From the NCBI GenBank assembly GCA_038883855.1, contig JAVZLH010000003.1, forward strand, positions 40,210 to 104,209: a DNA stretch of 64,000 nucleotides, in the 5' to 3' direction. Positions 7,073 through 44,031 of the stretch are shown here, piece after piece. The DNA is from Candidatus Bathyarchaeia archaeon. Lineage in GTDB: Archaea > Thermoproteota > Bathyarchaeia > Bathyarchaeales > Bathycorpusculaceae. A model generated the notes under the pieces. The model worked only from the letters and a program-made list of their open reading frames with translations, made no database searches and was not told the DNA's origin. The translations under genes and the position numbers were made by a program. Each line of letters starts with the position of its first letter. The first letter of the stretch is position 1.

Positions 7073-8356
7073 CTAATTCATAATATAACAGTTTCCATTT
7101 CCAGAATGGGGGGTTACTCCAGCAGTAGTTACCCTTTCTTTTAAAGATTTTAGAAAACAATATGTCAACAAACGCTATTAGGCATATGCACATGTTGTAT
7201 ACAAAATATAAAGATCATCAATGGAATTAGCCATTGGGCTCTTCTTCGGTTGTCTAAATAAGCGCCAATTCCAACTTCAAAAAAGGGTGCAAAGTTGCCT
7301 ATAAAGCTGTATAGAAAAACTGGGATGAAAGCCCAAAGGGCTGTTAGCCATTGAGAGGATTTCAAAAGTAAAAGCGGAATTCCCACAACCCAAGAAAGCA
7401 TGACCAGAAGAGGCATAATATATATAACAAGAGTAAGCCGTCAATTTTCTCTTTAAGTTTTAGGTTGCTGCTCTTTAAAACTTTAAAAGAATGCTTTATT
7501 GCGCATTGCATATGCCCTTTAGCCCACTTGTACCTTTGCCTCCAGTAGGTACGCCAGTTCTCAACAGCTTCTTCGTAGCATTCGGCATCGTTAACATACC
7601 GAATCTTATAGCCAGCAAGATAAACACGAAAAGTTAAGTCGGTGTCCTCAGCCAAAACGGATTCATCCCATCCTCCTAAAGACCTTAATAGGTCGTGTCT
7701 GAAGCCTCCAACTGTTCCGCCGAACTGCGGTATAAGCCCGAGAATATCCCGCGCATTCTGGTCAACAAGATATCCGCCTATCCTTTCAAGCGCTACAAGT
7801 CTTGTAACCACGTTTTGGGGGTTCATTCAACACAATAATTCTGCCTTGAACAGCTCCAACTTTTGGGTCTGCAAACTCTCTCGTGAGTTTTTTCCAAAAT
7901 GTCTCTTTGAGGGTAATAATCCGCATCAAAACACATGATGATTTCATGTTTAGCGTGTTTAAGTCCAGCGTTAAGTGCAGAGGCTTTACCTCGACCTCCT
8001 TCATGTTGATTTCTATGCACCACATTGATGAAGTTATATTTCTTTGAGTATTCTTCTGCAATTTGTCCGGTGGCATCTGTTGAAGCATCATTAATGGCTA
8101 TAACTTGTAATTTGTCTTTTGGATACGTCAGCTCGGTCATCCTTTTGAGAATTCTTCCAATAACTTTTTCCTCGTTTAGCGCAGGGATTAAAATGGAAAC
8201 AGTGGGCTGACAGATAGTGTCTACAACATTAGTACCTTTTTTATTTTTACCCGTATTCTTAATAACAGTTATAACAAAAATGTAGTGTCTGACGAGAGAG
8301 GCAACCATTAAGACTACTAAAATGACGAATACTGCTTCTAAAAATTCAATAAGCAT
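7073..8356 (-). pseudogene. family 2 glycosyltransferase (cellulose/PNAG synthase-like), multiply frameshifted
   Basis: Consecutive ORF pieces give VSILIPALNEE, NDASTD, GKASALN, FDAD, AEDTDL and RQRYKW (QxxRW-like), then TM helices and a terminal TPHSGNGNCYIMN*. Shifts occur at T6 7888-7893, G5 7817-7821, the TA repeat near 7420, and further sites near 7205 and 7115. Confidence 0.85.
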
Positions 8357-8763
8357 GCTTATGCCTCAGATTCTCCCTTGAAACGGCAAAAATGGTTAGA
8401 CTCACAGACCAAAAGGAGACAAACCATATGAGATTTAAAAACGGATTGAGAATCATGTATAGCACCTCAAAAGAGCTAAAAAAAGTATTCAGCGGCAGCG
8501 ACAGCAAACATAATAAAGAGGCTATTCCAAATCAAGCAAATAACATTTCCCAATAACAACATGCACAGTTTCTTTGTCAATGTCCCATCCAGAGGAAAGG
8601 TGAGAAGGGTGTAAAGGATGTTGAAGATTAAGAGCGTGGATGTCAATTCGGTGCTTGTGCGAAAGAAAAATGAGAGTGCAAATGAAACCATTATTCCGAC
8701 AAAAATGCCAAACGTTAAATGGTCTGTTCTGAAACCGCCTTTCTTCATTTTCATTTGCAACAC
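8346..8763 (-). pseudogene. hypothetical membrane protein, frameshifted at an A7 run
   Basis: Removing one base from A7 (8478-8484) extends the hydrophobic ORF (SSFEVLYMILNPFLNLIWFVSFWSVSLTIF...) to a TGA overlapping the GT2 start. Confidence 0.6.
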
Positions 8764-8848
8764 GACTTCCAGAGCTTTGTTATAGAAGATTATATAAAAA
8801 GCTTATACAGAAACCTTAAAATTTACGCAAAAACACGCGATCAAAATG

Positions 8849-9463
8849 CTAAGTTGTCTCCGACTTAAGCACGATGCTGTCTATCACTTTGCATAGAACT
8901 TGAAAAACTTCTTCGGGTGTCAAGTTATCAGTGTCCAAAACTAGGTGAAAGGGCGAAAAATCTTCCCCGAGGTCGAAACCGTAAAGCTTTTTGTAAATGT
9001 TTTTTGTTCCCTCTTCTTTTCTTTTTATGGCCTCTAAGGCTTCTTGAACAGTCACGCCATCCCTTTTAGCTATTCTCTCTGCTCTCTTCTGAAGGGAGGC
9101 TTCAAGCCATATTTTGAAACCCTTCTTTAAAAGCCAAGGCATAGCCCAACTGTCTAAAACTACATTTCCTTGCTGTGCTAGCTCCATCAGTTTTTTGTCA
9201 ACTGCTTCATCAAATTTTGGGTTATTTTCCCTTTCTTTTATAAAACGTATGCCTTCTTCGCTTTCCCACCATCCGCGTTTAAAAGGCTCGTGGCCTTTTT
9301 CCGCAGCTAGTTCTTTCAGCGCTTCGCCGCCAGAATAGTATTTCAGTCCATATCTTTCTGCAAGCTTTTTAGCTACAGTGCTTTTTCCACTCCCAGCCAT
9401 CCCTGAAATGCAAATGACAAGCGGTTCTTTGGTTGCTTTTCTGGATTTTCCATCAACAGTCAT
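8849..9463 (-). CDS. cmk: cytidylate kinase (archaeal type)
   Basis: ICISGMAGSGKST P-loop, RAERIAKRD, and position after rpl34e. Confidence 0.88.
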   Translation of the reverse strand: MTVDGKSRKATKEPLVICISGMAGSGKSTVAKKLAERYGLKYYSGGEALKELAAEKGHEPFKRGWWESEEGIRFIKERENNPKFDEAVDKKLMELAQQGNVVLDSWAMPWLLKKGFKIWLEASLQKRAERIAKRDGVTVQEALEAIKRKEEGTKNIYKKLYGFDLGEDFSPFHLVLDTDNLTPEEVFQVLCKVIDSIVLKSETT

Positions 9464-9481
9464 CAGTGTTCCTCAATTGTT

Positions 9482-9751
9482 TTACATTGTTCTCGCCGTT
9501 TGCTTTAAAGCGTTTTTTAGGCAGTTATGACAAACTTGCCCAGCATAAGGACGCCAAACTCTTCTTCTGCTTAGGTTTTGCTTGCTTGTTTCCGACGAAG
9601 TTAAACGTGGAAATCCCGCTATTGGCTTGCCGCACAGAAAACACGAAGGACCTCGTGGTTTTTCCTTTTTAAAGTATACTTTGTTTTCCCCGCCAGGCAA
9701 GGATTTTTCTATGCGCCTTCTGCTTCTTGTGCGTAAATGAGGTTGCGGCAA
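9482..9751 (-). CDS. rpl34e: 50S ribosomal protein L34e
   Basis: MPQPHLRTRS..LPGG, CxxC, RPYAGQVCHNC. Confidence 0.92.
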   Translation of the reverse strand: MPQPHLRTRSRRRIEKSLPGGENKVYFKKEKPRGPSCFLCGKPIAGFPRLTSSETSKQNLSRRRVWRPYAGQVCHNCLKNALKQTARTM

Positions 9752-9763
9752 ACTCTCATCCTC

Positions 9764-10210
9764 CTATTCAATGGGCAACATACCCAAAAGTCTAGAGGAA
9801 AGTACTCCAAAAAGCAAGGAACAAATCATGTACCAGTAAATGAATGGTATTCCGCCGATTCCAGGTATATATGCAACATTTCCGCTATACATAGGCATTA
9901 ATATTGGCCAAATTATGAAGTAAATTGGATAAATTCCGAATAAAACTAGTTGCGGTTTAAGTAATTTCTTTTGCATATTCATAATCTGTGGTTCTTTCTT
10001 TTTTATTTTCTCCATTAGCTTCTTGTCCTTTGTGCGCATTGCTTGAGTCAATTGAGCTTGGTATTCAGCGATTTCTTTTTGCATCATCCTATATTGCTTC
10101 CAGCCAACAAACCTGCTTATCAAGAGGCGGTTAAGGGAAGACACTGCAAAGGAAATAGCTAGACTGATTAACATAACCTCTATTGTAGCCATGGGTATTC
10201 CAGTACTCAT
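9764..10210 (-). CDS. EMC3/TMCO1 family membrane protein (DUF106)
   Basis: TM, coiled coil, TM architecture with WYMICS motif; conserved position between secY and rpl34e. Confidence 0.85.
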   Translation of the reverse strand: MSTGIPMATIEVMLISLAISFAVSSLNRLLISRFVGWKQYRMMQKEIAEYQAQLTQAMRTKDKKLMEKIKKKEPQIMNMQKKLLKPQLVLFGIYPIYFIIWPILMPMYSGNVAYIPGIGGIPFIYWYMICSLLFGVLSSRLLGMLPIE

Positions 10211-10299
10211 GGTATTTCACCTTTCTGCGCATACAAACTTGCTTAATTGCTTTTGTTTAAGTCCAGTTAATAACTATTTTTGCTTCTAGGCTCACAGTT

Positions 10300-11739
10300 T
10301 TATTCTCCAAATATTCTGCGGAAAGCTGGATACATTTCGGCGGCTCTTTCCCTAACCAAAATTTCGTAATACTGATATATTATACCAACAGAAAGCAGAA
10401 TGCCCATTCCTGAACCGAAAACTCCTAGAAAATCTGAAATACCAGCAATCAGTCCTACAATTATTCCGCCGAGAACTGTAACTGCTGGAATGTAACGCTT
10501 AAGAATGGATTCAATAGCCTTTTCAGAGCGTCTGTATCCAGGAATTTGCATGCCGGCATCGACCAGTTGCTTAGCCACGGTCGATGGTCCTAAACCGCCA
10601 ACCTCAAGCCAAGTAAGCGAGAAAATAACACAGAAAACAACGAGAATCGTGAGATAACCCAATGCTCGATCTGGACGGGCAGCAACATCTGCAAGGCTAT
10701 GCGGTGCTGTAACATAATAAACAAGGCCTCCAACAGGCTCGAGACTGGGCGTGCTACCCTCTGTGTTCCATCTAAACTGCCCTAAAATGTCAATCCAGAG
10801 TATTCCGGTTCCATTCTCTCTTTGACCGCCAAACGTGCTCCAGAAGAGCTGCGAGAAGATGAAGATGTTGGCGAAGAGAGCAGATGCGAAAATTACTGGC
10901 AAGTTGGATACGTATAGAAGTTTTATTGGGTATCGGCTTCTGAAACCTCTGTAACCAGCATAAGATATGGGTAGTTCAACTCTTACACCTTCCATGTAAA
11001 TTATCACCAAAAAGGCTGCTATTGTAGCTATAAAACCTATCAAAGATGGATAGTTTCCCCTTAATAATAAGCCTGTCGCTGGTTTTCCGCTCATTATTGT
11101 TTGCGCTAATGCCACAAAAATTCCATAACTACCATATTCATCAACCGGTGGAGAGGGGTTAAAACATGCAAGGAATATTTGTTGTGCTACACCAGCCATT
11201 ATAAAAAGGCTTATTCCACTGCCGAACCCCCATCCCTTTTGAACAAGCTCATCTAACAACTGCACGATAATTCCAGCAGCCACTAGTTGTAAGAAAACCA
11301 TTATTCTTATCGTGCTAGACAAATCACCGTACATTCCGCTGAGTATATAGGCTGTTGCCTGAACCCCTGTGAGAATTATGGCAAGAGCTTTGCTCGCTGT
11401 CGTGAAGAGGCTTCTGTCTTCTGGACGGGACATGTCGCATTCTATCATGGCTGAGCCAACTAAAAGTTGCAGTATTAATCCAGCCGTGACTATGGGACCT
11501 ATCCCCAGCTCCATGAGGGTGCCGTGGCTTGAAGCCCAAATTATTCTTAAAGCACTGAATCGTTCCTCTGTGGTTGAAGGTATGCCATATAGTGGGGTTA
11601 CTGCCATAACAAGGTATATTATCACAACTAAAGCTGTCCAGAACAGTTTCTCGTTAAACCGTACTCTCCGTTCTGGAGCCTTTACTTCTGGTAGAACCCT
11701 TGCAATTGGTTTGAACAGGTTTAGGAATCTGCCAGCCAT
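10300..11739 (-). CDS. secY: preprotein translocase subunit SecY
   Basis: GTLMELGIGPIVTAG, GSGISLFI, YPIKLLYVSNLPVI and GMQIPGYR. Confidence 0.97.
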   Translation of the reverse strand: MAGRFLNLFKPIARVLPEVKAPERRVRFNEKLFWTALVVIIYLVMAVTPLYGIPSTTEERFSALRIIWASSHGTLMELGIGPIVTAGLILQLLVGSAMIECDMSRPEDRSLFTTASKALAIILTGVQATAYILSGMYGDLSSTIRIMVFLQLVAAGIIVQLLDELVQKGWGFGSGISLFIMAGVAQQIFLACFNPSPPVDEYGSYGIFVALAQTIMSGKPATGLLLRGNYPSLIGFIATIAAFLVIIYMEGVRVELPISYAGYRGFRSRYPIKLLYVSNLPVIFASALFANIFIFSQLFWSTFGGQRENGTGILWIDILGQFRWNTEGSTPSLEPVGGLVYYVTAPHSLADVAARPDRALGYLTILVVFCVIFSLTWLEVGGLGPSTVAKQLVDAGMQIPGYRRSEKAIESILKRYIPAVTVLGGIIVGLIAGISDFLGVFGSGMGILLSVGIIYQYYEILVRERAAEMYPAFRRIFGE

Positions 11740-11749
11740 TGGTTGGTTT

Positions 11750-12217
11750 TCACTCTCCCTCTTTTTCTACCTCTTCCGTTAATTCCTCTTCTACTTCTTC
11801 TGTTAAAATTTCTCCACCAACTTCTTTTATCTTTTCAGCCGCCAACCTCGAGCACGAAGCCACTTTAACTATTAGCGGCTTTGTAATTTTTCCCGCACCA
11901 AGAAGCTTTGTATAGCCAAGGCTTGTTAAGTCTACGAGGAACTTTCCATTTTTCTCTCCAACAGAAATCTTCTTAACAATCTCGTCAAGTTTTCCAACAT
12001 TTATAGTTTTCACTTTTCTTTTCAAACTTTTAGGAGATGTAAAACCCTTTTTCCCAAAATATTCCGGTTCATACTTTATGACATAAGACCATAGATGTTT
12101 ATGTCGTCCGGCCTTTCGATAACCTTTGGACCCGGACTTTCTGTGTTGACCTACTCTCCCGTAACCTTGAGTCCTCGAACCCCGCTTTTTCCTGATTTTT
12201 CTAAGTTTATGAGGCAT
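11750..12217 (-). CDS. rpl15: 50S ribosomal protein L15 (uL15)
   Basis: RKKRGSRTQGYGR..HR, FGKKGF, KLLGAG. Confidence 0.95.
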   Translation of the reverse strand: MPHKLRKIRKKRGSRTQGYGRVGQHRKSGSKGYRKAGRHKHLWSYVIKYEPEYFGKKGFTSPKSLKRKVKTINVGKLDEIVKKISVGEKNGKFLVDLTSLGYTKLLGAGKITKPLIVKVASCSRLAAEKIKEVGGEILTEEVEEELTEEVEKEGE

Positions 12218-33066: not shown

Positions 33067-34152
33067 ATGAGTTTGCCTCGAAAATTTACATATTCTCGTG
33101 CTGGCGTTGACAGAAAACTGAGGAGGGAGTCGAAGAGGGCGTTGACAGTTTTGGAGAAAACCTACGGGTTTAGCTGTTATGGTGATGTGGTTCGGCTTCC
33201 CTACGGGAACATTTTCCCTTTTAGAGAAAACTGTTACCTAGACCTTGTTATTGAGGGGGTTGGCACAAAGGTTCTTTTGGCACAGTTAGCGGACAAATAT
33301 GACACCATCGGAATTGACGGGGTTGCTATGGCTGTTAATGATGTCATCCGTTCGGGCGCCCGACCATTAGCCGTTGCAGACAACATTCATGCCCAAGTTT
33401 CTGATCCCGTTTTGGTTCACGAGTGGATGAAGGGTATATTGAAAGGCGCTGAAGAAGCGAACTGTGTTGTGCCAAGCGGCGAAATAGGCGACGTGGGAGA
33501 TTTGATAAAAGGGTTGGCTGAGGGTAAGGGTTTTGACATGGTTTTTGCGGCGATAGGTGAAGTTGAAAGGGATAAGGTTATTTTTGGAAAGGATTTAAGG
33601 GCTGGCGATGTTGTTATAGGCTTGCGGAGTTCTGGAATCCACAGCAACGGGATTTCTCTTGCACGGAAAATTTTATTCAAGCATTGGGGTGGAAAATACG
33701 AGCCTTTCGACATTCCAGGAGGCTTTTACAGAGAGATAGTTTATGAGGTTTTGGAGCCAACTAGGATTTACGTTAAGCCGCTGTTAAAAGTAGCTGATGA
33801 GGTTAAGGTGAAAGCCGCAGTGCACATTACTGGCGATGCATACTTAAAGTTTGACCGTTTAATGGCGTTTTCGAAAGGTGTGGGTTTTGAGTTTGACAAT
33901 TTTAAGCCTCAGCCAATCTTTGAGTTAATCCAGAAAACTGCCTCGGAGCTTGGCGGAGTTTTAACCGATGAGGAGATGTTTAAGACTTTTAACATGGGTT
34001 GGGGTTTCGCAGTAGTTGTGGATAAAGAAAGCACGGATAGGGCTATGGATGTTTTGGATGGGGCTGGAGTGCACGCAGAGCAGATAGGGCTTGTGAATGA
34101 TTCTGGGAAAATAACAATTCGTTATAAGGGCAGACGATTCATTTTGAGTTAG
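33067..34152 (+). CDS. purM: phosphoribosylformylglycinamidine cyclo-ligase (AIR synthase)
   Basis: Y..AGVD, EGVGTK, GID.VAM.VND, SSGIHSNG.SLAR, HITG, EM..TFNMG.G. Confidence 0.92.
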   Translation: MSLPRKFTYSRAGVDRKLRRESKRALTVLEKTYGFSCYGDVVRLPYGNIFPFRENCYLDLVIEGVGTKVLLAQLADKYDTIGIDGVAMAVNDVIRSGARPLAVADNIHAQVSDPVLVHEWMKGILKGAEEANCVVPSGEIGDVGDLIKGLAEGKGFDMVFAAIGEVERDKVIFGKDLRAGDVVIGLRSSGIHSNGISLARKILFKHWGGKYEPFDIPGGFYREIVYEVLEPTRIYVKPLLKVADEVKVKAAVHITGDAYLKFDRLMAFSKGVGFEFDNFKPQPIFELIQKTASELGGVLTDEEMFKTFNMGWGFAVVVDKESTDRAMDVLDGAGVHAEQIGLVNDSGKITIRYKGRRFILS

Positions 34153-34212: not shown

Positions 34213-34464
34213 ATGAAATACCGTTTAAGAATAGAAGTGAGTCTAAAATCTGGGCACATCGACCCAGAAGGCGAAACTACAGCGCGCTTGCTGAAAGAGC
34301 TTGGTTACCACGTTAACGGTGTTAATGTGGGTAAGGTTTACACTGTTGTTCTTGAAGCTGGTTCCCGTGAGGAGGCTGATGTTAAGGCTGAGGAGATGTG
34401 CAGGAGGCTTTTGGCGAATCCAACTAAGGATAATTACAGGTTTACGATTGAGGAAGTGAAATGA
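34213..34464 (+). CDS. purS: FGAM synthase subunit PurS
   Basis: LK.G..DPEG, MC.RLLANP. Confidence 0.93.
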   Translation: MKYRLRIEVSLKSGHIDPEGETTARLLKELGYHVNGVNVGKVYTVVLEAGSREEADVKAEEMCRRLLANPTKDNYRFTIEEVK

Positions 34465-36836
34465 GCCTCTACATTCGAAGGAAAACTCCTTTCCCACTCT
34501 TCGAAATAAATTTGGCTGACGCTTCTGACGAGCAACTGCTAGAGATAAGCAAGGAGTTGGGAATAGGCTTAAACTTGCATGAAATGAAAGCTGTCCAAGA
34601 ATATTTCCGAAAGCAAGGGCGAAATCCGACGGATGTGGAGCTTCAAACCATTGGACAGACGTGGTCTGAGCATTGTTTTCACAAAACTTTTAAAGGCAAA
34701 ATAATGATGGATGGTAAGGAAATTGACGGCCTCCTCAAAACCTACATTATGAAGGCGACAGAGAAAATTAAGCCAAAATGGTGTTTCTCTGTTTTCGAGG
34801 ATAATGCGGGGATAATTCGTTTCGAAAGGGATTATGGAATAGCGGTTAAAGTTGAAACCCATAATCACCCATCTGCAATTGAACCGTTTGGAGGCGCTGC
34901 CACAGGCGTTGGCGGCGTTATACGCGACATCCTTGGGGTTTGGGCAGACCCCATCGCGTGCACTGACGTTTTGGGTTTCGGACCGTTGGATTTTGATTAT
35001 GAGAAACTGCCGTTTGGTGTTAAGCATCCGAAATATGTGTATATGGGTGTAGTGGCGGGTATAGGAAGTTATGGCAATAACATGGGAATCCCAACAGTGA
35101 ACGGCGCCATATACTTTGACGAGAGCTACACGGGGAATGTTGTTGTCTACTGCGGGTGTATCGGCATATTGCCACTAAAAAAATTCAAGAAAAACGCCAA
35201 GCCAAACAACGTGATAGTTTTGGCTGGCGGAAAAACTGGGCGCGACGGCATTCACGGCGTGACCTTCGCTTCAGCGGAGCTAACTGAGAAATCGGAGGAA
35301 GTTTCAAGACCAGCGGTTCAAATTGCGAACCCCATCGAAGAGGAGAAGCTGAAAAGGGCAATAATCAAAGTTCGAGACCTCGAACTTGCCTCTGCAATAA
35401 CCGATTTGGGTGGAGGCGGACTTTCATCTGCTGTTGGCGAAACTGCTAAGAAGTTTGGCTGTGGAGCTGTTGTTTGGCTTGAAAAAGTTCCTTTAAAGTA
35501 TGCTGGTTTGGCGCCTTGGGAAATTTACGTTTCCGAATCCCAAGAAAGAATGCTCCTTATAGTGCCCAGTGAAAATCTTGAAAAAGTTTTGGAAATCTTC
35601 AACGAAGAGGATGTGGAAGCCACAGCCATAGGAAAGTTCACCGCTGACAAGGTTTTGAGAATCTTTTACTGTGATGAAAAGGTTGCTGAGGTTGACATCC
35701 CATTCCTTTTTGAACCGCCAAAAGCCATTAGAAAAGCAGAGTATAAACCCTCAAGTTTCGAAGAGCCAAATTTCCCAATTCCAGAAAACCTAACTGAGAC
35801 ACTCATGCAGATTTTGGCTTCGCCGAACATTGCAAGCAAAGAAAGCGTGGTGCGCACCTACGACCATGAAGTGAAGGGAAACACCGTGCTTAAACCTCTA
35901 CACGGAGAACATGGAGGTCCAAACGATGCAGCAATCATAAAACCGCTTAACGATTCTTGGAGGGGCTTGGTTATTTCATGTGGAATGAAACCGCGTTACG
36001 GCAAAATTGACACTTATTGGATGGCGGCTTCCGCCCTAGACGAGGCGATAAGGAATAATGTTGCTGTCGGCGGAAGAAGAATAGCTTTACTGGACAACTT
36101 CACCTGGGGCAACCCTGAAAAGCCCGAAAGGCTTGGAAGCCTCGTTAGGGCTTGCGAAGCGTGTTATGATTTTGCAACAGCTTTTGGCACGCCGTTCATC
36201 TCGGGAAAGGACAGCCTATACAACGAGTCTCCGCTGGGTCCTGTGACGCCTACGCTTTTGATTACGGCTGTTGGGATAATTCCAGATGTTCGCTTGGCGG
36301 TTTCTGTTGATGTGAAAGAACCCAACGACTTAATATACGTTGTTGGCGAAACTTTCAAGGAGCTCGGCGGCTCTGAATATTATAGGCTGAAGGGTTTTAT
36401 AGGAAAAAATGTGCCTAAAGTTCGCCCCAAAAAAGCGAAGAAAACCTTCAAGGCAATTACTAAAGCCATCGACTTGGGGCTTGTTAAGGCATGTCACGAC
36501 TTGTCTGAGGGGGGATTGGCGGTGGCTGCGGCGGAAATGGCTTGTGCTGGCGGCTACGGTTTAGAGCTGGATTTGCGAAAAGTGCCGGGTGAAGCCTTAA
36601 ACCGTGATGATTTCATCTTGTTTTCTGAGTCGAACAGTCGTTTTCTTGTTGAAGTTTCACCTAAAGCCGAGAAGGAATTTGAGGCTTTGATGAGGGGAAA
36701 AGCTTACGCTAACATAGGGAAAGTCACTGAGGAAACGCGGTTGCGGATTAAGGGTTTGAAAGGAAAAATTGTTGTTGACGCTTCAATTGATGGTTTGCTG
36801 GCAAGTTGGAAAAGAACGTTAAGCGGCGGGGTTTAG
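34461..36836 (+). CDS. purL: FGAM synthase subunit PurL
   Basis: WSEHC.HK, KVETHNHPS, GAATGVGGVIRD, TGRDG, SESQERM, SGKDSLYN. Confidence 0.97.
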   Translation: MSLYIRRKTPFPLFEINLADASDEQLLEISKELGIGLNLHEMKAVQEYFRKQGRNPTDVELQTIGQTWSEHCFHKTFKGKIMMDGKEIDGLLKTYIMKATEKIKPKWCFSVFEDNAGIIRFERDYGIAVKVETHNHPSAIEPFGGAATGVGGVIRDILGVWADPIACTDVLGFGPLDFDYEKLPFGVKHPKYVYMGVVAGIGSYGNNMGIPTVNGAIYFDESYTGNVVVYCGCIGILPLKKFKKNAKPNNVIVLAGGKTGRDGIHGVTFASAELTEKSEEVSRPAVQIANPIEEEKLKRAIIKVRDLELASAITDLGGGGLSSAVGETAKKFGCGAVVWLEKVPLKYAGLAPWEIYVSESQERMLLIVPSENLEKVLEIFNEEDVEATAIGKFTADKVLRIFYCDEKVAEVDIPFLFEPPKAIRKAEYKPSSFEEPNFPIPENLTETLMQILASPNIASKESVVRTYDHEVKGNTVLKPLHGEHGGPNDAAIIKPLNDSWRGLVISCGMKPRYGKIDTYWMAASALDEAIRNNVAVGGRRIALLDNFTWGNPEKPERLGSLVRACEACYDFATAFGTPFISGKDSLYNESPLGPVTPTLLITAVGIIPDVRLAVSVDVKEPNDLIYVVGETFKELGGSEYYRLKGFIGKNVPKVRPKKAKKTFKAITKAIDLGLVKACHDLSEGGLAVAAAEMACAGGYGLELDLRKVPGEALNRDDFILFSESNSRFLVEVSPKAEKEFEALMRGKAYANIGKVTEETRLRIKGLKGKIVVDASIDGLLASWKRTLSGGV

Positions 36837-36838
36837 CT

Positions 36839-37657
36839 TTGAAAACCGAAGACGTCAAAATCTGCATTTTACGCGTAGGCGGAACAAACTGCGATGCAGA
36901 AACCAAACGCGCATGTGAAGAACTCGGTGTTCAAGCCCGCATAGTGCATGTAAACGAACTGTTCAAGAAAAAGAACTTGCTGGAATACAACGCCTTAATT
37001 TTTCCAGGCGGCTTTTCATATGGAGATTATGTGCGGGCTGGCGCCATATGGGCTAAGTGGATTATGGCAAAGTTGGAGAAGGAACTGAAAGCTTTTGTAG
37101 AAGAAAACCGCCCCATCCTCGGAATTTGCAACGGCTTTCAAGTTCTTGTCGAAGCTGGTTTGCTTCCAGGTTTTGAGGGAATAAGCCCCTATCCAGAGGC
37201 TGCTTTAGCAACGAATGTTCCACCGGGCTACAATTGCCGCTGGATTTACCTCAAAAACGAAAACAATGGAAAGTGTATTTTTACACGAAAAATTTCAGGT
37301 GGCAAGGTTCTTCGCATGGCAGTTGCCCATTCAGAGGGGCGTTTCATCTTCGCAAAGGAGAAGGAAAAACAGTTTTTGGAAAGGCTTTACGAGAACGACC
37401 AGCTTGTCTTCCGCTACTGCACGAAAAATGGCGAATATGCGGAAGGCAGTTACCCAGCAAACCCGAACGGTTCATTCCACGACATTGCTGGAATATGCAA
37501 TCCAGAAGGAACAGTTTTTGGTTTGATGCCCCATCCAGAAAGAGCGTTTTACTGGTGGCAGCAGCCAGACTGGACTAGGTATAGGCAGTTGCCGCAGTAT
37601 GGCGATGGAAAACTAATATTCGAAAGCTTAGTTGAACACTTAACCAAGAAATTTTAA
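36839..37657 (+). CDS. purQ: FGAM synthase glutaminase subunit PurQ
   Basis: GTNCD, PGGFSYGD, LGICNGFQ, NPNGS, MPHPER. Likely TTG start at 36839. Confidence 0.96.
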   Translation: MKTEDVKICILRVGGTNCDAETKRACEELGVQARIVHVNELFKKKNLLEYNALIFPGGFSYGDYVRAGAIWAKWIMAKLEKELKAFVEENRPILGICNGFQVLVEAGLLPGFEGISPYPEAALATNVPPGYNCRWIYLKNENNGKCIFTRKISGGKVLRMAVAHSEGRFIFAKEKEKQFLERLYENDQLVFRYCTKNGEYAEGSYPANPNGSFHDIAGICNPEGTVFGLMPHPERAFYWWQQPDWTRYRQLPQYGDGKLIFESLVEHLTKKF

Positions 37658-38554
37658 ATCCTTAAGCCGTGGAAGCCCAGGTCTAGCACCCATCTTCATT
37701 ATGCAACGGGAAGCCACAAAATTGCCCAACCGCCCACACTCGTAAAGGTTTTTGCCCTTAATCAAACCGTAAAGGAAACCAGCACAGAAGGCGTCCCCAG
37801 CACCAGTCGTGTCAACAACCTTAACCTTGAAGGCATCTATCAAATGATTTTCTCGCCCATCAGCCACATAGCAGCCTCTGCTTCCAAGTTTAACAGCAAC
37901 TATCCCTATACCTTTCTCCAGTAGGATTTTTGCGCCTTCCCGATAATCGGAAACGCTAGTTAGCAATTTGAGCTCGTTCTGGTTTGGCATCAAAACAAAA
38001 GTGCGCCTCATTATGGATTCAAGTGCATCAAAACCTTTTCTCGCGTAAAGCTCACCCGGGTCTAAGCTGACTTTAACATTTTCTGGGAGTGTGTCAACAA
38101 GCTTTTTCTGGGTTTGGAAAGATTTTTCTCCAACAAAGGATGTTAGGTGCAAAAATTTTGTGTTAAAGGCGTATTCCTTGTTTATTTCTTCAAATTCTAT
38201 TGTGTCATTCACGCCAGGGTCAACGTATAAGGCTCTTTCGCCCTTATCGTCCACGAAGCCCATGACTTTTCCGCTTCTGCCTCTTTTCGCGATAATTATT
38301 CCATCCGTGTCGACGCCTTCTCGGCGAAAATCTTGGATCAACATTCTGCCTTCACTGTCTTTGGCAACCTTCCCCATGAAGCCAACTTTGCAGCCTAGCC
38401 TTGCTAAACCCACTATTGTGTTGGCTGCTGAGCCGCCGCATGCCTCTTTAAAATCTTTTATGAAGCCTTCTTCTTCGGCTCCAGCTATCTTATTAACCCT
38501 AAAAAGTTTGTCAACGTTTAATGCTCCAAAACCAACAACATCAAAGCTTTTCAT
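37640..38554 (-). CDS. PfkB family carbohydrate/nucleoside kinase (EhaT-like)
   Basis: [30 protein letters not shown]. Confidence 0.9.
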
Positions 38555-39462
38555 TTAAACAACTCACGCAAATAAATTTTGTATTCGCCGAGTTTTCCGC
38601 CGTAGTTTCCAGCTGAAATTTTAACCACACCTTCAACAGTTAACGCTGCTTCTATGCCAGCCCTCATAGCCTTTTTCACAGCATCCAACGAAACGCCGTT
38701 TATCACTATTTCGGGGATGAAGCCGACGCCTTCAGGAACCTTGGATTCTCTGCCAAGCTTCTTTTTCAGCGATGGGCAGTATGGGTGGTTTGTCGTCGGT
38801 CCTATCCACGGATAGCGTGTTTCAGGCTTGGAGCCAGCGGAGCAAATGTCGAAGGGTGTTGTAACGCCTTCAACTTCATGTATTGCTTTTAGAGCTTTTT
38901 CACCCGCCTCTCTTAGGGCTTCTTTATCTTTGCACATTATCCAGAAGTTTGCGCCCATGACACCGCGGGCATAGCCTAAATAGCGTTCAATTATGAAGTC
39001 TGGAACCATTATGGGAACAACTATTACTTTGCGTCCATGCCGTTTTTCTGTCCATTCGTAGCCGTCTCCGCAATGCCCCACCCGTTCCATCATGTCAATT
39101 TTTCCTTCAGCTTTCGGCAACGCGTCATAAACTGCGGTGAAGGGCTTTACTAAAATGTCTTGGCGTATTCTGTAGGAAAGCTCGATTTCAAACTTTTTAA
39201 GAGAGTCAGAGAAGCCTTTCTTCTTGTCTATTCCGCCCCAGAACTGGATTAAGGCGCCTTTGCGCTTGTCAGGTGTTTCTCTTGCAGTTAGCCATTTTTC
39301 GATTCCGCCTTCCACTCTTCCAATAACTATGGAAGGGGTTGCTGTGGCGTCTTCAGCTGCTTTCCTCAAAGTTTCTTCGTCGTCTGCCGTTATAATTACG
39401 TGGCAGTAGATTCCTTCAAAAGCTTCTGCATAAGTGTCCTCTATGAGGATTTCTTTAACCAT
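38551..39462 (-). CDS. formylmethanofuran:H4MPT formyltransferase-like protein (divergent Ftr/EhaS paralog)
   Basis: [28 protein letters not shown]...V..AM.AGI and [11 protein letters not shown] are Ftr hallmarks, but the central segments differ from canonical Ftr. Confidence 0.88.
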
Positions 39463-40544
39463 TACCCAAGTCTCCCAATGGCTTCTCCTCTCACTTTTTT
39501 CCTGAATTCCGTGCTTTCTTTCGCCAGAACATCCATATTTTCGCTGGTTACTATTTTAACTTTGGGCAGTTTTTGCGGGTATAACTGGAGCAGTTTCTCG
39601 CGCAAGTTCGGGTTTACTGGACTTTTAGCCAGTGTTTCGCGGCTCCAATTTTCAACCAGCTCGAAGACTTGGTTTTTTCCAAACTTGCAGAAGATGTCTG
39701 CAACTGCTGCTGTGGTTAGGCTGGTTTCTGATAGGATGGCAATGTCAGCGTTTTTTACGGCGTATTGGTTGCCGTTGAAGGAAACCGTTAAACCGCCCCC
39801 GCCTTTAACAAGTTGGAAGGCTTCAACGTCTGTTATGCTGTCGCCTACATACATGACGTCGGAAAGCTCTATGTTGACTTTCTGCGCTGCATCCTTTACC
39901 GCTTCAGCCTTTTCAAAACCGCCTATAGGGTTAACTTCCTCTAAAATTTTCCTTGAAGCCATCACCGCCATTTCTTTCCAGAAAATCTCATCTAAACGCC
40001 TAATTGTTTCGCGGTCTCTTTTCGCAAAGTCTTCTATGGACTTTGCTCCATTTGGGATTTCAATGACGGGCATTTGCGCAATTTCCAGCGCCATCTTTCT
40101 GAGTTCAATTATTTCTTTTTCTGGCAGCACATACTTGTCGATGTTGACTTTTGTGCAGTAAGTGTTTTCGTATGGGAAGCCTATGGTTTGGCAAAGCGCC
40201 CTAATATAATGCTCGTAACTTGTGCTCACAATAAAGGCGTGGGCTACGCCCCGCAAATAATCTAGCGTTTCCTTAGTGTTTGCTATTAGAACTAGGCTTT
40301 TTGCAGAAAACTCCCGCATTTTCTCGTTTGAAACATCATAAGCCTTGAGAAAGGGAAGGATAAGCCTTAAAGTGTCTCCAGCCTTGTAACGCGATCTCTT
40401 AAAGACGTCTGCAAGAACATCATCGTATTTGCTGATTACCGTAAAGAGTTTGTCGCCGTTTGGAACAAAGTGGGCTGTCAGCTCGAAAGCATTATCGTTT
40501 TTGGATATTGGACCTTCACAGTCTGATATGAAGGCTTTCTTCAC
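39462..40544 (-). CDS. HAD-superfamily hydrolase, AF1437/EhaR-like
   Basis: Motif [29 protein letters not shown], motif IV GDSITD, SFNGN.YA. Confidence 0.85.
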
Positions 40545-41956
40545 TTTTTGCGCCTCAAACTTTCCATGTGCCCCATGCTTTTCGCTATGTGCTGTTTAGA
40601 GGCAATATCCGTCCGGTGCCAAAGAGCCCCGCCCTCTATGGCTTTTACTCCCTCCAACGATATTTGCCTAGCCTCTTCAATGCTGCTGCCAACTCCTAAA
40701 ACGCCGACAGCCCTGGATTTTAGGGCGTAGACTTTGCCATCGCGCAATTCCATGGAAGCAGGGTAGACGCGGATTTTATCACCATACTTTTTGGTTAAAG
40801 CATATGCTTTTGTTAGGTTGACTGGTGTTCCTATTTCGCTTTTATTCACAAGGTTTGGGAAAGCTTCGGCGTATCCGCCATAGTTTGGAGGAACTTTATA
40901 GGTTAAGACCGTTGCCGCCTTCTCTAGTTCAATGCGCGTTAGGTTTCCTTCCAAGATTTTGTAGCAAATATCAACGAAATCGTCTTTCAAAATTGGCAGA
41001 ATATTTATTATTTCAGGGTCTCCAGGACGGCTGTTATTTTCTAAGATTTTTGGCTCTTTGCCCGTATGCATAAAAGCCACGTAGAAGGGGACACCCCTAA
41101 AGCCAGAGGGATCGTTTGCTTTTTCTTTCCATTTTTCAAAAAGCGTATTTACTATTTGCAGTTCCTTTTCCCTATCTGCTTTCGTCATGAAAGGCAAAAA
41201 TTCGTCAACATCTTTGTAGGAGCCCATTCCACCAGTATTCGGTCCTTTGTCATCGTCAAAAGCACGTTTGTAATCCCTAGTTTCCGGTAGTGGAATTAGG
41301 TGTTTGCCGTCGCAGAAGGCTTGGAAACTAGACTCTTCCCCATCTATTTTTTCTTCAATTATAACTGCGCCATATTGGAAGTTTGACAAGAAATGTTCTA
41401 GGAGTTGTTCGCGGCTTGTGAAGTGGTCTCCCCAGACGCCCACACCTTTTCCAGCAGCGGGCTTGTCTGGTTTAACGACTGCCTCGTTTCGAAGTTCATC
41501 AAGCCAACTATAAACAGCTTTTTTCACAGCATCTTCTGTTTTGTAGTCTTTTGGGTCAAATATTTTGAAACGCGGATTAACTTCTGGAATGATTTCTTGA
41601 AAGAGCATTCGCTGCTGAACTTTGCTTGCTTCTATGGCATATTCCTTCTTTGGACAAATCATCGGTATACCAGTTCGCTCTTCCACAAGGTCGCGGACGC
41701 CGTCTATTATTGGCTTTTCCGAACCAACTATGCCGAAGTCCATTTTGTCTTTGTTTGCTTCTGCAAATTTGCAGATTTCTTCAACATTTAAATCTGGTAT
41801 GACAACATGTTTGGCGGCTTTTTCAACGTTGAATGGGTTGCGTTGTTTGTCTGCGATATACAATTCAACCTTGTATTTTTGACTTCTTGCAAACGCGTCT
41901 ACCATGGCGGCTTCTCTCGCCCCATAAGAAACTACGAGTATGCCAACCTTCTCCAT
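40541..41956 (-). CDS. purD: phosphoribosylamine--glycine ligase (GAR synthetase)
   Basis: VVKP....AGKGV, IEEKIDGEE.S, DYKRAFDDDKGPNTGGMGS, RPGDPE, RTDI. Confidence 0.93.
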   Translation of the reverse strand: MEKVGILVVSYGAREAAMVDAFARSQKYKVELYIADKQRNPFNVEKAAKHVVIPDLNVEEICKFAEANKDKMDFGIVGSEKPIIDGVRDLVEERTGIPMICPKKEYAIEASKVQQRMLFQEIIPEVNPRFKIFDPKDYKTEDAVKKAVYSWLDELRNEAVVKPDKPAAGKGVGVWGDHFTSREQLLEHFLSNFQYGAVIIEEKIDGEESSFQAFCDGKHLIPLPETRDYKRAFDDDKGPNTGGMGSYKDVDEFLPFMTKADREKELQIVNTLFEKWKEKANDPSGFRGVPFYVAFMHTGKEPKILENNSRPGDPEIINILPILKDDFVDICYKILEGNLTRIELEKAATVLTYKVPPNYGGYAEAFPNLVNKSEIGTPVNLTKAYALTKKYGDKIRVYPASMELRDGKVYALKSRAVGVLGVGSSIEEARQISLEGVKAIEGGALWHRTDIASKQHIAKSMGHMESLRRKK

Positions 41957-41972
41957 TTAAAGCACCCCTTAG

Positions 41973-43493
41973 TTAGGGAGTTAGGTTTTCGGCAAGCTCC
42001 GCCATCTCGTAAAGCCTCTCAGTTTCTTTGTATCCTGCAAGGAAGCGTTTCTTCATTTCATCCGCTATTTTCTGAGCGAAAGGCGTCGGATACTTGCCAG
42101 TAACGCATCCGAGGCATAATTGGTCTTGTGAAAAGCCCGTTGCCCTAACAAAGCTTTCTATGGACTGGTAACACACCGCATCCGCGCCTATTATTCTCGC
42201 TATTTCCTCAGCATTGTGTTTTGCACCTATTAATTGGCTGTAGGTTGACATATCAATGCCATAGAAGCAGGGACCAATGATCCTTGGGAAAGTGACGAAA
42301 ACATAAACTTTTTTGGCACCCATCCTTCGCAGCTTCTCAACCACAACTTTTGTTGTGTCGCCGCGAACTATACTATCGTCGGTTATTATGACACGTTTTC
42401 CCCTAACTTTTGGCGCTAGAATGTTAACCTTCTTATCTATTGTCGCGTACCGTTCCTTATTGAGGAGGATGAAGGCTCGTTCAGTGACGTAACGGTGTCT
42501 GCGGGAAGCCCTCTCCCACTTTAACCCAGACTCTTCATGAACACCAAAGGCGGAATCATCACCAGTTTCAGGCATAGAAAGTATCATGTCAGCGTCCTTA
42601 ACTATGTCGGGGTTTTCTCTAGCAAGATTCCTTCCAAACCCCTCACGTATTTCATAAACATATCTATCGTCAAATCTTGAGTCTGGCCTGGCGAAATACG
42701 CAAATTCAAAGGCGCAAAAAGCTTTTTGCGCTCCTTTTACAAGCTGTTCCCTTTCAAATCCTTCTTTGGAAACTTTCACAAGCTCGCCCGGTTCAAGTTC
42801 AAAATCCCTTTCTAAACTGTTTATGTCCAGACCCGCGGTTTCTGAAGAAAAGGCGTACGTGGTTCCGTCGGTGCTGTGTCCAGCGCATAAGGGTCTTATT
42901 CCATGCGGGTCTTTGAAGGCGAAGAGTTCTCCTTTATTCGTTATGCCGGCCACAGAGAAGGCTCCATCCATTTCTTGCATACAGTTTTTTACAGCTTTTG
43001 CAATATCTTTGTTTTTTGCCAGTTCGATTAGGAGTTTGCGGCATATTAATTCTGCATCCGATTGGCATGAGTAATCTCTGAAATGCTTGCTTATTTTCTT
43101 TTTCAGTTGAAAGACGTTTACGATGTTGCCGTTGAAGGAGATGGCGAGTTTTAAACCGTTTTTTGAAGCGGTAATGGGCTGTGTGCCTTTTATTAACGAT
43201 TTCTCATCCGACTTTCCAGATGTTGTGTATCTTACGTTTCCCATACCTATAGATCCTGGCAAACGTCCAAACCATTCCTGGATAGAGCTTGTTTTTATTT
43301 TTGGGACGAGGTCCAATCCCTTGTAAACGAAAAATTTTCCCCATTCATATGTGAGGAAACCGTGGGATTGATGTCCCCTGTGATTTTGCGCTCTTAAACC
43401 CCAGTATATATAAGGGAATACGGGCTGATTAGAGAAGTTTATTGCAGCAAATACTCCGCATGCTATTTTTAATTCCTCACCCATACTCGACAA
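41973..43493 (-). CDS. purF: amidophosphoribosyltransferase
   Basis: Propeptide then CGV, HRGHQS.G, RYTTSG, NGN, DPHGIRPL, C.FE..YFARPDS, DDSIVRG.T, PCFYGID. Confidence 0.95.
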   Translation of the reverse strand: MSSMGEELKIACGVFAAINFSNQPVFPYIYWGLRAQNHRGHQSHGFLTYEWGKFFVYKGLDLVPKIKTSSIQEWFGRLPGSIGMGNVRYTTSGKSDEKSLIKGTQPITASKNGLKLAISFNGNIVNVFQLKKKISKHFRDYSCQSDAELICRKLLIELAKNKDIAKAVKNCMQEMDGAFSVAGITNKGELFAFKDPHGIRPLCAGHSTDGTTYAFSSETAGLDINSLERDFELEPGELVKVSKEGFEREQLVKGAQKAFCAFEFAYFARPDSRFDDRYVYEIREGFGRNLARENPDIVKDADMILSMPETGDDSAFGVHEESGLKWERASRRHRYVTERAFILLNKERYATIDKKVNILAPKVRGKRVIITDDSIVRGDTTKVVVEKLRRMGAKKVYVFVTFPRIIGPCFYGIDMSTYSQLIGAKHNAEEIARIIGADAVCYQSIESFVRATGFSQDQLCLGCVTGKYPTPFAQKIADEMKKRFLAGYKETERLYEMAELAENLTP

Positions 43494-43596: not shown

Positions 43597-44031
43597 CTAT
43601 TCCACCGCGCTTGAAGTTATAGTTAACTCCGCGTTTGGAACCACGTGAATCCACCAGTCTAATGCTGTGAAGGAATCGTTGTAGTAGACTATGAGCCTTG
43701 CAACTGAGCCTATAGGCGCGTCACATGGAACCGTGCCATTCCACGTTAAAGTTTTACGCTGATTTGATTCAAGAGTCAAGATTTGAGGTATCCCACTCCA
43801 AGTCCACAATTCGCCTTCAAAAGCTATGTTAACATACCATGTGCCAACACTTTGTCCAGTGTTTTTAAAGTAAATCTTGACAATAAAAGTCTCACAAGGA
43901 GTTTTGTCGACAACACCTTTGCTGCAGCAGGCTAAACAAACCAGCTGCTGACCATTAGAACCCGAAGCTGCGAAAAATGCCATAATTATTAACGTAGCTA
44001 CTGCAAGAGTGAACAGAATAATCTTTTTCAT
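43597..44031 (-). CDS. hypothetical secreted protein
   Basis: Signal-peptide-like N-terminus followed by a beta-rich, Trp-rich domain. Confidence 0.6.
   Translation of the reverse strand: MKKIILFTLAVATLIIMAFFAASGSNGQQLVCLACCSKGVVDKTPCETFIVKIYFKNTGQSVGTWYVNIAFEGELWTWSGIPQILTLESNQRKTLTWNGTVPCDAPIGSVARLIVYYNDSFTALDWWIHVVPNAELTITSSAVE

Follow-up and report, generated by a model that had tools for sequence, protein, structure and literature searches.

In the 64,000-nucleotide stretch of Candidatus Bathyarchaeia archaeon DNA analyzed here (contig JAVZLH010000003.1, positions 40,210 to 104,209; hereafter the window), an operon of five genes, purF-purD-HAD-FtrII-PfkB, appears to encode the first three steps of de novo purine synthesis. 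The protein that we call FtrII is a paralog of formylmethanofuran:tetrahydromethanopterin (H4MPT) formyltransferase (Ftr), and we consider it likely that it formylates glycinamide ribonucleotide (GAR) from formyl-H4MPT or formyl-methanofuran (formyl-MFR), with the HAD hydrolase and the PfkB kinase as co-functional partners. The support for this reading is that FtrII is a separate paralog which occupies the slot between purD and purL, is displaced there by a PurN-like transferase, is complementary in distribution to the known enzymes, is nested within the genomes that have purD, and co-occurs with an HAD protein that is itself found fused to other putative GAR formyltransferases. As a predicted function, the assignment of FtrII to step 3 is well supported by comparative genomics. 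The genes of the operon are as follows:

41973-43493, minus strand: purF, amidophosphoribosyltransferase, step 1; 506 residues, GATase_6/7 domains; first gene of the operon
40541-41956, minus strand: purD, GAR synthetase, step 2; 471 residues, GARS_N/A/C domains
39462-40544, minus strand: EhaR/AF1437-type HAD hydrolase; 360 residues, PF08282, PF00702 and PF12710
38551-39462, minus strand: FtrII, paralog of formylmethanofuran:H4MPT formyltransferase and candidate GAR formyltransferase; 303 residues, PF01913 and PF02741
37640-38554, minus strand: PfkB-family ribokinase-like kinase; 304 residues, PF00294; last gene of the operon

These five open reading frames (ORFs) lie head to tail and converge on a plus-strand purM-purS-purL-purQ cluster, and the last four are joined by overlapping stop and start codons (GTGA at 40544-40541 between purD and the HAD gene, TAATG at 39464-39460 and ATGA at 38554-38551). 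A preliminary description of this DNA had given the same gene order, coordinates and overlaps, all of which were borne out by the ORF list, the family scans and the junctions as read on the minus strand, and the assignments of purF, purD, purS/purL/purQ and purM likewise agree with its statement that steps 1, 2, 4 and 5 are present. The cluster itself covers these steps only, and purE and two purP genes are on another contig of the host genome (1.11 Mb, 24 contigs, 85% complete, 0.8% contamination). The same description had placed a formyltransferase in the slot of a missing PurN or PurT, and family searches of this 85% complete assembly indeed found no PurN, not a single PF00551 (Formyl_trans_N) domain and no PurT, the best PurT-family match being one of 56 bits within a 1102-residue frame. 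PurH was not found in the host genome either, and none of HAD, FtrII and PfkB has a Formyl_trans_N or a PurT-type ATP-grasp domain. Methenyl-H4MPT cyclohydrolase (Mch) was found, from which we take the host to be an H4MPT organism, and since it has two PurP and no PurH it needs formate for at least step 9, the formylation of aminoimidazole carboxamide ribonucleotide (AICAR). Judged by these searches, the host is without a recognizable enzyme for GAR formylation other than the FtrII candidate. Close homologues carry Bathyarchaeia names in a protein search.

FtrII has both Ftr domains at full length (PF01913, 155 bits, residues 3-151; PF02741, 198 bits, residues 154-301). It exceeds the cut-off of the NCBIfam subfamily model NF002554 (356 bits against 297) but falls below that of the equivalog model TIGR03119 (245 bits against 293), and its identity to the solved Ftr proteins of M. 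barkeri, A. fulgidus and M. kandleri is approximately 40%, as estimated from alignments. The only Ftr found in the host genome is the FtrII of the window; as both genomes of the same genus (93% complete) hold a second copy, its absence from the host may be an assembly gap. An Ftr copy 60-94% identical to the window protein is present in 38 of 41 relatives, in one case as a partial sequence at a contig end; 34 of the 41 have a copy that is 38-46% identical, and 32 have both copies. In a maximum likelihood tree of 83 Ftr sequences (IQ-TREE quick search, LG+C20; eight near-duplicate or truncated rows omitted), 54 FtrII sequences (35 from Bathyarchaeia and 19 from Asgard archaea) separated from 29 canonical ones (14 and 15, respectively) with an SH-aLRT value of 100 on both sides, the window protein falling on the FtrII side and the canonical copies from the same genomes on the opposite side.

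Forty-three alignment columns are common to the two classes and conserved in ≥90% of the sequences of either class, including the Glu of the motif PEIVING (E251 in FtrII). In M. kandleri Ftr the oxyanion-stabilizing Glu is number 245. In the Ftr homologue FhcD, a conserved protonated Glu252 stabilizes the oxyanion, according to a passage of PMC6926001. Judging from the motif, with FhcD itself outside our alignment, Glu251 of FtrII would be the counterpart of this residue. FtrII is set apart from the canonical class by an insertion of 5-9 residues near residues 77-90, by 'PF--DIC' for the canonical 'PFPGGIC' and 'IPEIV' for 'VYEIV', and by a further handful of class-specific residues. While FtrII therefore has the two-lobe fold, the Pfam domains and the conserved Glu of Ftr and FhcD, it differs from them in forming a separate clade and in having purine genes rather than one-carbon (C1) genes as its neighbors; by sequence it is a member of the Ftr superfamily outside the canonical Ftr clade. 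A complex prediction of HAD with FtrII returned a score of 0.00, which weighs neither for nor against an association.

The linkage of the module to purine genes was examined in the best 80 loci obtained from GTDB species genomes with the profile of a 14-sequence HAD alignment, 79 of which are titled Bathyarchaeota, -ia or -ales and one Thorarchaeota. The HAD gene is adjoined by purD in 79 of the 80, the remaining locus starting at a contig end. FtrII lies within 75 loci, directly after HAD in 70 and after an insert of 1.0-4.8 kb in five; it is cut off by the contig end in one locus and missing from the 10 kb downstream in four. In these four exceptions FtrII-PfkB is located elsewhere, and is beside purQ in all three that reach far enough. 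Of the 75 FtrII-bearing loci, 68 have PfkB next to it, and purQ is convergent in 65 of the 80.

Several gene orders were found among Asgard archaea, whose genomes were sampled starting from one locus. For instance, in G257 and G268 the order is purF-purD-HAD-FtrII-PfkB-purL-purQ-purM on one strand, placing the trio between steps 2 and 4, and in G249 and G260 it is purQ-purL-purF-purD-FtrII. In G238, G250 and G272 it is purQ-purL-purF-purD-HAD-PfkB...purM, with FtrII alone elsewhere (900 kb away in G238, in which purE, purB, purP and guaA were confirmed by family scan); G288 and G280 have partial versions on shorter contigs. In G304, G245, G355 and G330, purD is followed by one small gene and then HAD. 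Four arrangements in a different phylum argue that the linkage is not mere inherited synteny of one order, and with the 79 Bathyarchaeia loci they answer affirmatively the question raised in the preliminary description, whether the association with pur genes extends beyond this lineage. The neighborhoods of the stand-alone Asgard FtrII genes contained nothing informative.

Two further observations concern loci titled as Asgard. One pur operon (L165, G344:C59, approximately 7823-11859) has two major facilitator superfamily (MFS) transporter genes flanking HAD, one of which belongs to the oxalate/formate antiporter / lactate transporter family (322 bits). A 3.6-kb contig of a genome titled Thorarchaeota (G045 contig C231; L121/L105) bears HAD-FtrII-PfkB-purQ, 63-75% identical to the window; the FtrII encoded there groups within the Bathyarchaeia clade and the G045 genome has no purD match, and by these sequence features the contig is probably mis-binned.

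The exceptions within Bathyarchaeia are informative as to what replaces FtrII. PurT and PF00551 were searched for in 64 Bathyarchaeia genomes plus that of the host (G000), and PurT-family matches at E ≤1e-20 came from three, G012, G047 and G155. The G012 match was rejected as a PurT because it is a PurK (444 bits). The G047 protein is PurT-like (259 bits to the PurT model vs. 84 to PurK) and the G155 protein is 88% identical to it; in the phylum sample described below only three Bathyarchaeia are without HAD, G047 and G155 being two of them, and just one Ftr is present in G047. Matches to PF00551 were confined to G080 and G111, both of genus g50, where the operon is purF-purD-PurN-like with no FtrII there. 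The g50 PurN-like protein (278 residues) has PurN as its best NCBIfam model (77 bits) and GAR transformylases as its closest relatives of known structure (best PDB match E. coli PurN, E 2.6e-12), and the alignment shows the catalytic motifs N, H and D. The g50 genomes have only one Ftr, on another contig, and have kept HAD (49% identity) with PfkB nearby (37%). From the last of the three HAD-less genomes, G034 (98% complete), FtrII, PurT, PF00551 and purD are all absent. The slot after purD is thus filled by FtrII or a PurN-like protein, a PurT-like protein is present where the module is gone, and all are gone where the pathway is gone.

A side observation on g50 is that its pur-type PfkB gene overlaps a FolD gene (335 bits) at L132 (G111:C1, 4384-6292) and that the G111 genome has no PurP match, suggesting that a Bathyarchaeon which has retained HAD and PfkB has a C1 branch of the folate type.

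Profiling across 201 Thermoproteota genomes at least 85% complete (PurT-like threshold E ≤1e-55) gave a complementary distribution. Among the 140 genomes with purD, 66 had PF00551 only, 45 a PurT-like protein only, one a PurT-like protein plus PF00551, and 23 HAD only; HAD plus PF00551 occurred in two (both genus g50), HAD plus a PurT-like protein in none, and three had none of the candidates, two of these being purD fragments at contig ends. The 61 genomes without purD yielded HAD once (a fragment) and PF00551 once. HAD was present in 26 of 29 Bathyarchaeia vs. 0 of 172 other Thermoproteota, carriers of PurN and PurT included.

Among 121 Asgard genomes (76 with purD and 45 without), FtrII-type proteins were called at ≥47% identity and ≥240 bits, and 19 of the 23 genomes so identified are placed in the FtrII clade of the tree. 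FtrII occurred in 22 of the 76 purD-positive and in one of the 45 purD-negative genomes, this exception being G045, vs. canonical-only Ftr in 32 purD-positive and 21 purD-negative genomes. The 76 genomes with purD comprise 44 with PurN only, 14 with FtrII only, eight with both, three with a PurT-like protein only and seven with none, so that the 24 lacking PurN divide into 14 with FtrII, three PurT-like and seven with none. The odds ratio of FtrII against PurN is 0.13 (Fisher p 3e-4, kinship uncorrected). HAD was detected in 20 of the 23 genomes with FtrII vs. 0 of the 98 without, and the two co-occur even when the genes are unlinked. The anti-correlation with PurN and PurT anticipated in the preliminary description is accordingly strong in Thermoproteota and significant in Asgard archaea, but in the latter it is not strict. 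By our count, Bathyarchaeia have undergone three or more independent switches, and Asgard archaea show four arrangements.

The HAD protein is also tied to formyltransferases by gene fusion. A search of 1.84 billion representative proteins identified 651 HAD relatives, with three long ones among the best 150. P0182 (599 residues) consists of a PurN-like domain followed by HAD (PF00551, 46 bits; best NCBIfam model PurN), as do P0295 and P0296 (613 residues; 11 and 33 cluster members). These three proteins are only 35-36% identical over 98% of their length, a divergence which indicates that the fusion is old and real. Fusions of an ATP-grasp domain with HAD were also found (P0204, 899 residues; P0212, 961 residues; and metagenome ORFs L142 and L143 at 83% and 56% identity). 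The only named matches of their ATP-grasp domain are PurT models, local and at E 2.5e-8, with PurT in the PDB at E 0.18, and by hhalign it aligns with the Bathyarchaeia PurT-like protein at 91% probability (E 1.1e-6, 157 columns) vs. 3.4% for PurK; with some reserve, we regard it as PurT-like. The neighbors of the ATP-grasp-HAD fusion genes are unrelated to purines. The HAD protein is thus associated with putative GAR formyltransferases of three unrelated types. Another apparent fusion, P0413 (682 residues, on a 3.4-kb contig), was discarded, as its C-terminal 330 residues have no family match; it is probably a gene-calling artefact produced by read-through of high-GC non-coding or antisense sequence.

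The HAD protein itself matches PDB entry 1y8a (AF1437) at E 1.9e-36, and its relatives are named 'energy-converting hydrogenase A subunit R' (EhaR) in Joint Genome Institute (JGI) names and an Atlas cluster name. In 40 pur-linked HADs the residues D8, E10, G11 and P12 (DxEGP), S107, S109, K212 and G234-D-S-I-T-D239 are invariant, as is a C-terminal tail ending R-G-x-x-x-G-x-L-G; in the window protein the conserved tail ends ...VRGxxxGRLG. The +2 position of motif I is Glu rather than Asp; Glu at this position occurs in active enolase-phosphatases. The invariance of the four catalytic motifs and the tail argues for an active phosphotransferase and not a scaffold. The last 13 residues (window 39465-39500, minus strand), a tail that ends in Gly, hardly vary among Bathyarchaeia and reappear in the fusions with PurN-like and ATP-grasp domains. 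The PfkB protein has PF00294 over residues 6-295 (189 bits), and 'TGAGDAF' is seen in its translation, GAGD being the catalytic motif of the PfkB family. Its best match among named kinases is TIGR02152, ribokinase (175.5 bits against a cut-off of 299.65), all 25 models listed being below cut-off, and its closest relatives in the PDB are ribokinases and adenosine kinases. For the pur-linked PfkBs from g50 and from Asgard archaea, the best match in the host genome is the window PfkB (37% and 35%), vs. 26-28% for the sole other paralog. The identities proposed in the preliminary description (AF1437/EhaR-like HAD, Ftr-like protein and PfkB) are thus in accord with the PDB match and the family scans.

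An identical succession of families, HAD, Ftr-like and ribokinase-like, is found as EhaR, EhaS and EhaT, going by passages of PMC3087415 and by JGI and Atlas names, both of which agree with the statement in the preliminary description that such a trio ends the Methanothermobacter eha operon. In one of these passages EhaS is annotated as Ftr and EhaT as ribokinase, co-transcribed with ehaA-R, and in another the second Ftr is named 'EhaT'. Given this co-transcription with eha, a formyltransferase role for EhaS and a ribokinase role for EhaT were argued there to be improbable (passage in Kaster et al., 2011, PMC3087415). The arrangement described here is different in that, in the window and in 79 of the 80 Bathyarchaeia loci, the genes follow purD and not a hydrogenase operon; the window HAD, for all its sequence kinship with the EhaR-named family, is outside any Eha hydrogenase operon and is flanked by pur genes. 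The Ftr tree contains no EhaS, and it is from the literature and the source names that we infer EhaR, EhaS and EhaT to be the same module.

With regard to mechanism, FtrII would keep the formyl-transfer chemistry of Ftr and accept the glycinamide amine of GAR or its riboside in place of methanofuran, with N5-formyl-H4MPT or formyl-methanofuran as the presumed donor. It would do the job of PurN or PurT in archaea using H4MPT rather than folate, and the EhaR-type HAD phosphatase and the ribokinase-like PfkB would belong to the same step. As HAD goes with every transferase type, usually adjoins purD and is found fused to the transferase, its substrate is placed on the acceptor/product side (GAR or FGAR, formylglycinamide ribonucleotide). 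We tentatively suggest that HAD and PfkB may be a phosphatase/kinase pair acting on the ribose 5'-phosphate of acceptor and product, with ATP hydrolysis making the near-equilibrium transfer irreversible. Similarly tentative is the complete shunt, the first of the routes put forward in the preliminary description, in which HAD would strip the 5'-phosphate from GAR, FtrII would formylate the glycinamide riboside from the low-energy N5-formyl-H4MPT or formyl-MFR pool, and PfkB would re-phosphorylate only the formylated riboside to give FGAR, one ATP pulling a near-equilibrium transfer; the same HAD-kinase logic would extend to the PurN-like and PurT-like partners, and EhaR, EhaS and EhaT would be purine enzymes. 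Their co-transcription with Eha would in that case tie the anaplerotic supply of formyl-MFR to its anabolic drain.

Several points weigh against these proposals. The sampled genomes are related and their counts are not independent events; as kin are not independent, the Asgard Fisher tests overstate significance, and the profiling covers two phyla, Thermoproteota and Asgard archaea. Eight of the 22 Asgard genomes with both purD and FtrII also hold a canonical PurN of 143-180 bits (fragments only in G267), so FtrII is not simply a replacement there. FtrII is present in G249, G260 and G271 with no HAD detectable by the query used, from which it follows that the trio is not obligatory, and seven Asgard and three Thermoproteota genomes with purD show none of the candidates. 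The shunt fits poorly with an ATP-using PurT-like partner and with the FtrII genomes lacking a detectable HAD, and in some Asgard genomes FtrII is present without HAD or PfkB. Moving the formyl group of N5-formyl-H4MPT onto a primary amine is slightly unfavorable in energy (+4.4 kJ/mol with methylofuran, MYFR, as acceptor, in a passage of PMC6926001), and purine C1 units are taken to come from free formate in a 2023 systems study of Methanothermobacter (PMC10579436). Finally, the score of FtrII to NF002554 and its retained catalytic Glu would be compatible with ordinary Ftr activity, and FtrII is the only Ftr found in the host (85% complete).

This last point is in line with one alternative, that FtrII is a second MFR:H4MPT formyltransferase of the C1 pathway whose position in the pur operon only mirrors the co-regulation of C1 supply and purine demand. 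Its score above the Ftr subfamily cut-off, the catalytic Glu and 43 columns common to both classes, and its being the sole Ftr found in the host all speak for an isoenzyme, but we regard this as very improbable given the deep split from canonical Ftr with class-specific indels near conserved motifs, the presence of FtrII beside canonical Ftr in 32 of 41 relatives, its confinement to purD-positive genomes when 21 purD-negative Asgard genomes have canonical-only Ftr, and its tight co-occurrence with HAD even at a distance of 900 kb. The trio might instead make or recycle a ribose-containing compound (dephospho or phospho forms of H4MPT, a methanofuran derivative, or ribose phosphates for phosphoribosyl pyrophosphate) with no formylation of GAR. 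The ribokinase-like character of PfkB, with mid-range scores to ribose-1-phosphate kinases, the Asgard pur operons that have HAD-PfkB pairs with no adjacent formyltransferase, and the co-operonic PfkB and FolD of g50 are in keeping with such tailoring. However, it leaves unexplained the alternation of FtrII and PurN-like proteins directly after purD, the HAD fusions to PurN-like and PurT-like catalytic domains, and the complementarity with PurN and PurT, and we consider it improbable, if less so than an isoenzyme.

A formate-supply role, in the manner of PurU or Fhc, is the least improbable of the alternatives and still an unlikely one. FtrII would here move the formyl group to methanofuran or another carrier, freeing formate for ligases (PurP, and for GAR a PurP paralog or an ATP-grasp enzyme), and HAD and PfkB would serve that or salvage. 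The host, with two tandem PurP and no PurH, requires formate at least at step 9; FhcD is part of a complex that releases formate (passage of PMC6926001); one Asgard pur operon has an oxalate/formate-family MFS transporter between purD and HAD; and formate is stressed for purine synthesis in a passage of PMC10579436. Set against these are the lack of an FhcA/FwdA-type hydrolase in any operon examined, the fact that step 3 would be left without an enzyme, and the displacement of FtrII by a PurN-like transferase and not by a formate-producing enzyme. Nor does PurP copy number track the type of step 3 in the five genomes compared, since two PurP are also present in G047, which is PurT-like, and a single weak match in the trio-bearing G010; a PurP paralog as the step-3 enzyme is less likely for the same reason.

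Formylation of GAR by FtrII would make it a functional analogue of PurN and PurT, and we do not claim it as a member of either family. With PurN it would share the product FGAR, a pur-operon position and a complementary distribution, and a divergent PurN-like protein takes its place behind purD in one genus of Bathyarchaeia and is joined to the same HAD in fusions elsewhere; the PurN fold, however, is unrelated to that of FtrII, and PF00551 is absent from the host genome. PurN uses 10-formyl-tetrahydrofolate. PurT catalyzes the same step in folate-free archaea, is mutually exclusive with HAD in the 201 Thermoproteota, and has a distant relative in the ATP-grasp domain fused to HAD, but its fold and chemistry are unrelated, its reaction running via a formyl phosphate intermediate and drawing on free formate in place of a carrier-bound formyl group. 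PurP and PurU are likewise archaeal and bacterial solutions to purine formylation without or around folate, with PurP in two copies here; they differ in that PurP acts at step 9, PurU only supplies formate, and neither is linked to purD in these loci.

De novo purine synthesis is among the best-characterized pathways, and yet its step-3 enzyme has been a gap in several archaeal groups since at least 2011. A GAR formyltransferase was not findable in two Archaeoglobi, four listed Methanomicrobiales (whose names are those of Methanobacteriales) and M. kandleri, according to a section of Brown et al. (2011, PMC3261824), and a passage of Chadwick et al. (2022, PMC9012536) adds ANME-1 and calls the enzyme 'as yet unidentified'. 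These sections support the statement in the preliminary description that some H4MPT-using archaea are without a recognizable purN or purT. The gap thus spans Archaeoglobi, Methanobacteriales, Methanopyrus and ANME-1 in these sources and, by the present searches, a majority of Bathyarchaeia and some of the Asgard archaea. The missing GAR formyltransferase is a stated open problem in precisely those groups for which a second Ftr or EhaS is reported. We found no paper linking an Ftr paralog, EhaR/S/T or the HAD protein to GAR formylation, subscription journals being mostly outside the search. The FtrII system probably fills the step-3 gap in archaea lacking both known enzymes. If this is correct, FtrII would be a GAR formyltransferase of a third class, not homologous to the other two and the first that takes its formyl group from the C1 pool of H4MPT and methanofuran. 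Re-annotation would follow for thousands of genes now called 'Ftr', 'EhaR' or 'ribokinase', and Eha would lose three of its 'hydrogenase subunits'. For methanogens and uncultured archaea, both metabolic models and the interpretation of isotope labelling would change, and the module would provide a marker for purine prototrophy in metagenome-assembled genomes.

The neighbors of the operon in the window are as follows:

33067-34152, plus strand: purM, step 5; TIGR00878 above cut-off
34213-34464, plus strand: purS, step 4; TIGR00302 above cut-off
34461-36836, plus strand: purL, step 4; TIGR01736 above cut-off
36806-37657, plus strand: purQ, step 4; NF002252 above cut-off
43597-44031, minus strand: 144-residue ORF upstream of purF; no Pfam or NCBIfam match, membership of the system uncertain

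Of the two assigned purine enzymes of the operon itself, PurF matches TIGR01134 at 314 bits over its full length, below the cut-off of 350, and PurD matches TIGR00877 at 268 bits, below the cut-off of 288. The PurD proteins of the HAD-bearing Bathyarchaeia in the sample likewise score 206-270 bits to TIGR00877, below its cut-off, those of the two PurT-like Bathyarchaeia 370-376 bits, and the trio-adjacent Asgard PurD proteins 440-450 bits; by these scores the Bathyarchaeia PurD has diverged.

A few observations remain on homologues of the module and on other genes of the host. Protein searches also show homologues in bacteria (Thermodesulfobacteriota, Aerophobetes and others). P0153, a representative of the HAD family (361 residues, JGI name EhaR), has NCEGS for DCEGP, GNDVSD for GDSITD and no C-terminal RG...LG tail, and may be an inactive paralog. 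The tandem PurP-family pair of the host is on contig C4 of G000 at approximately 36355-38534, its members being 53% and 40% identical to Asgard PurP, and the same pair is present in G040 and in the PurT-like genome G047. The 144-residue ORF upstream of purF is kept at that position in many Bathyarchaeia loci, at 46-74% identity.

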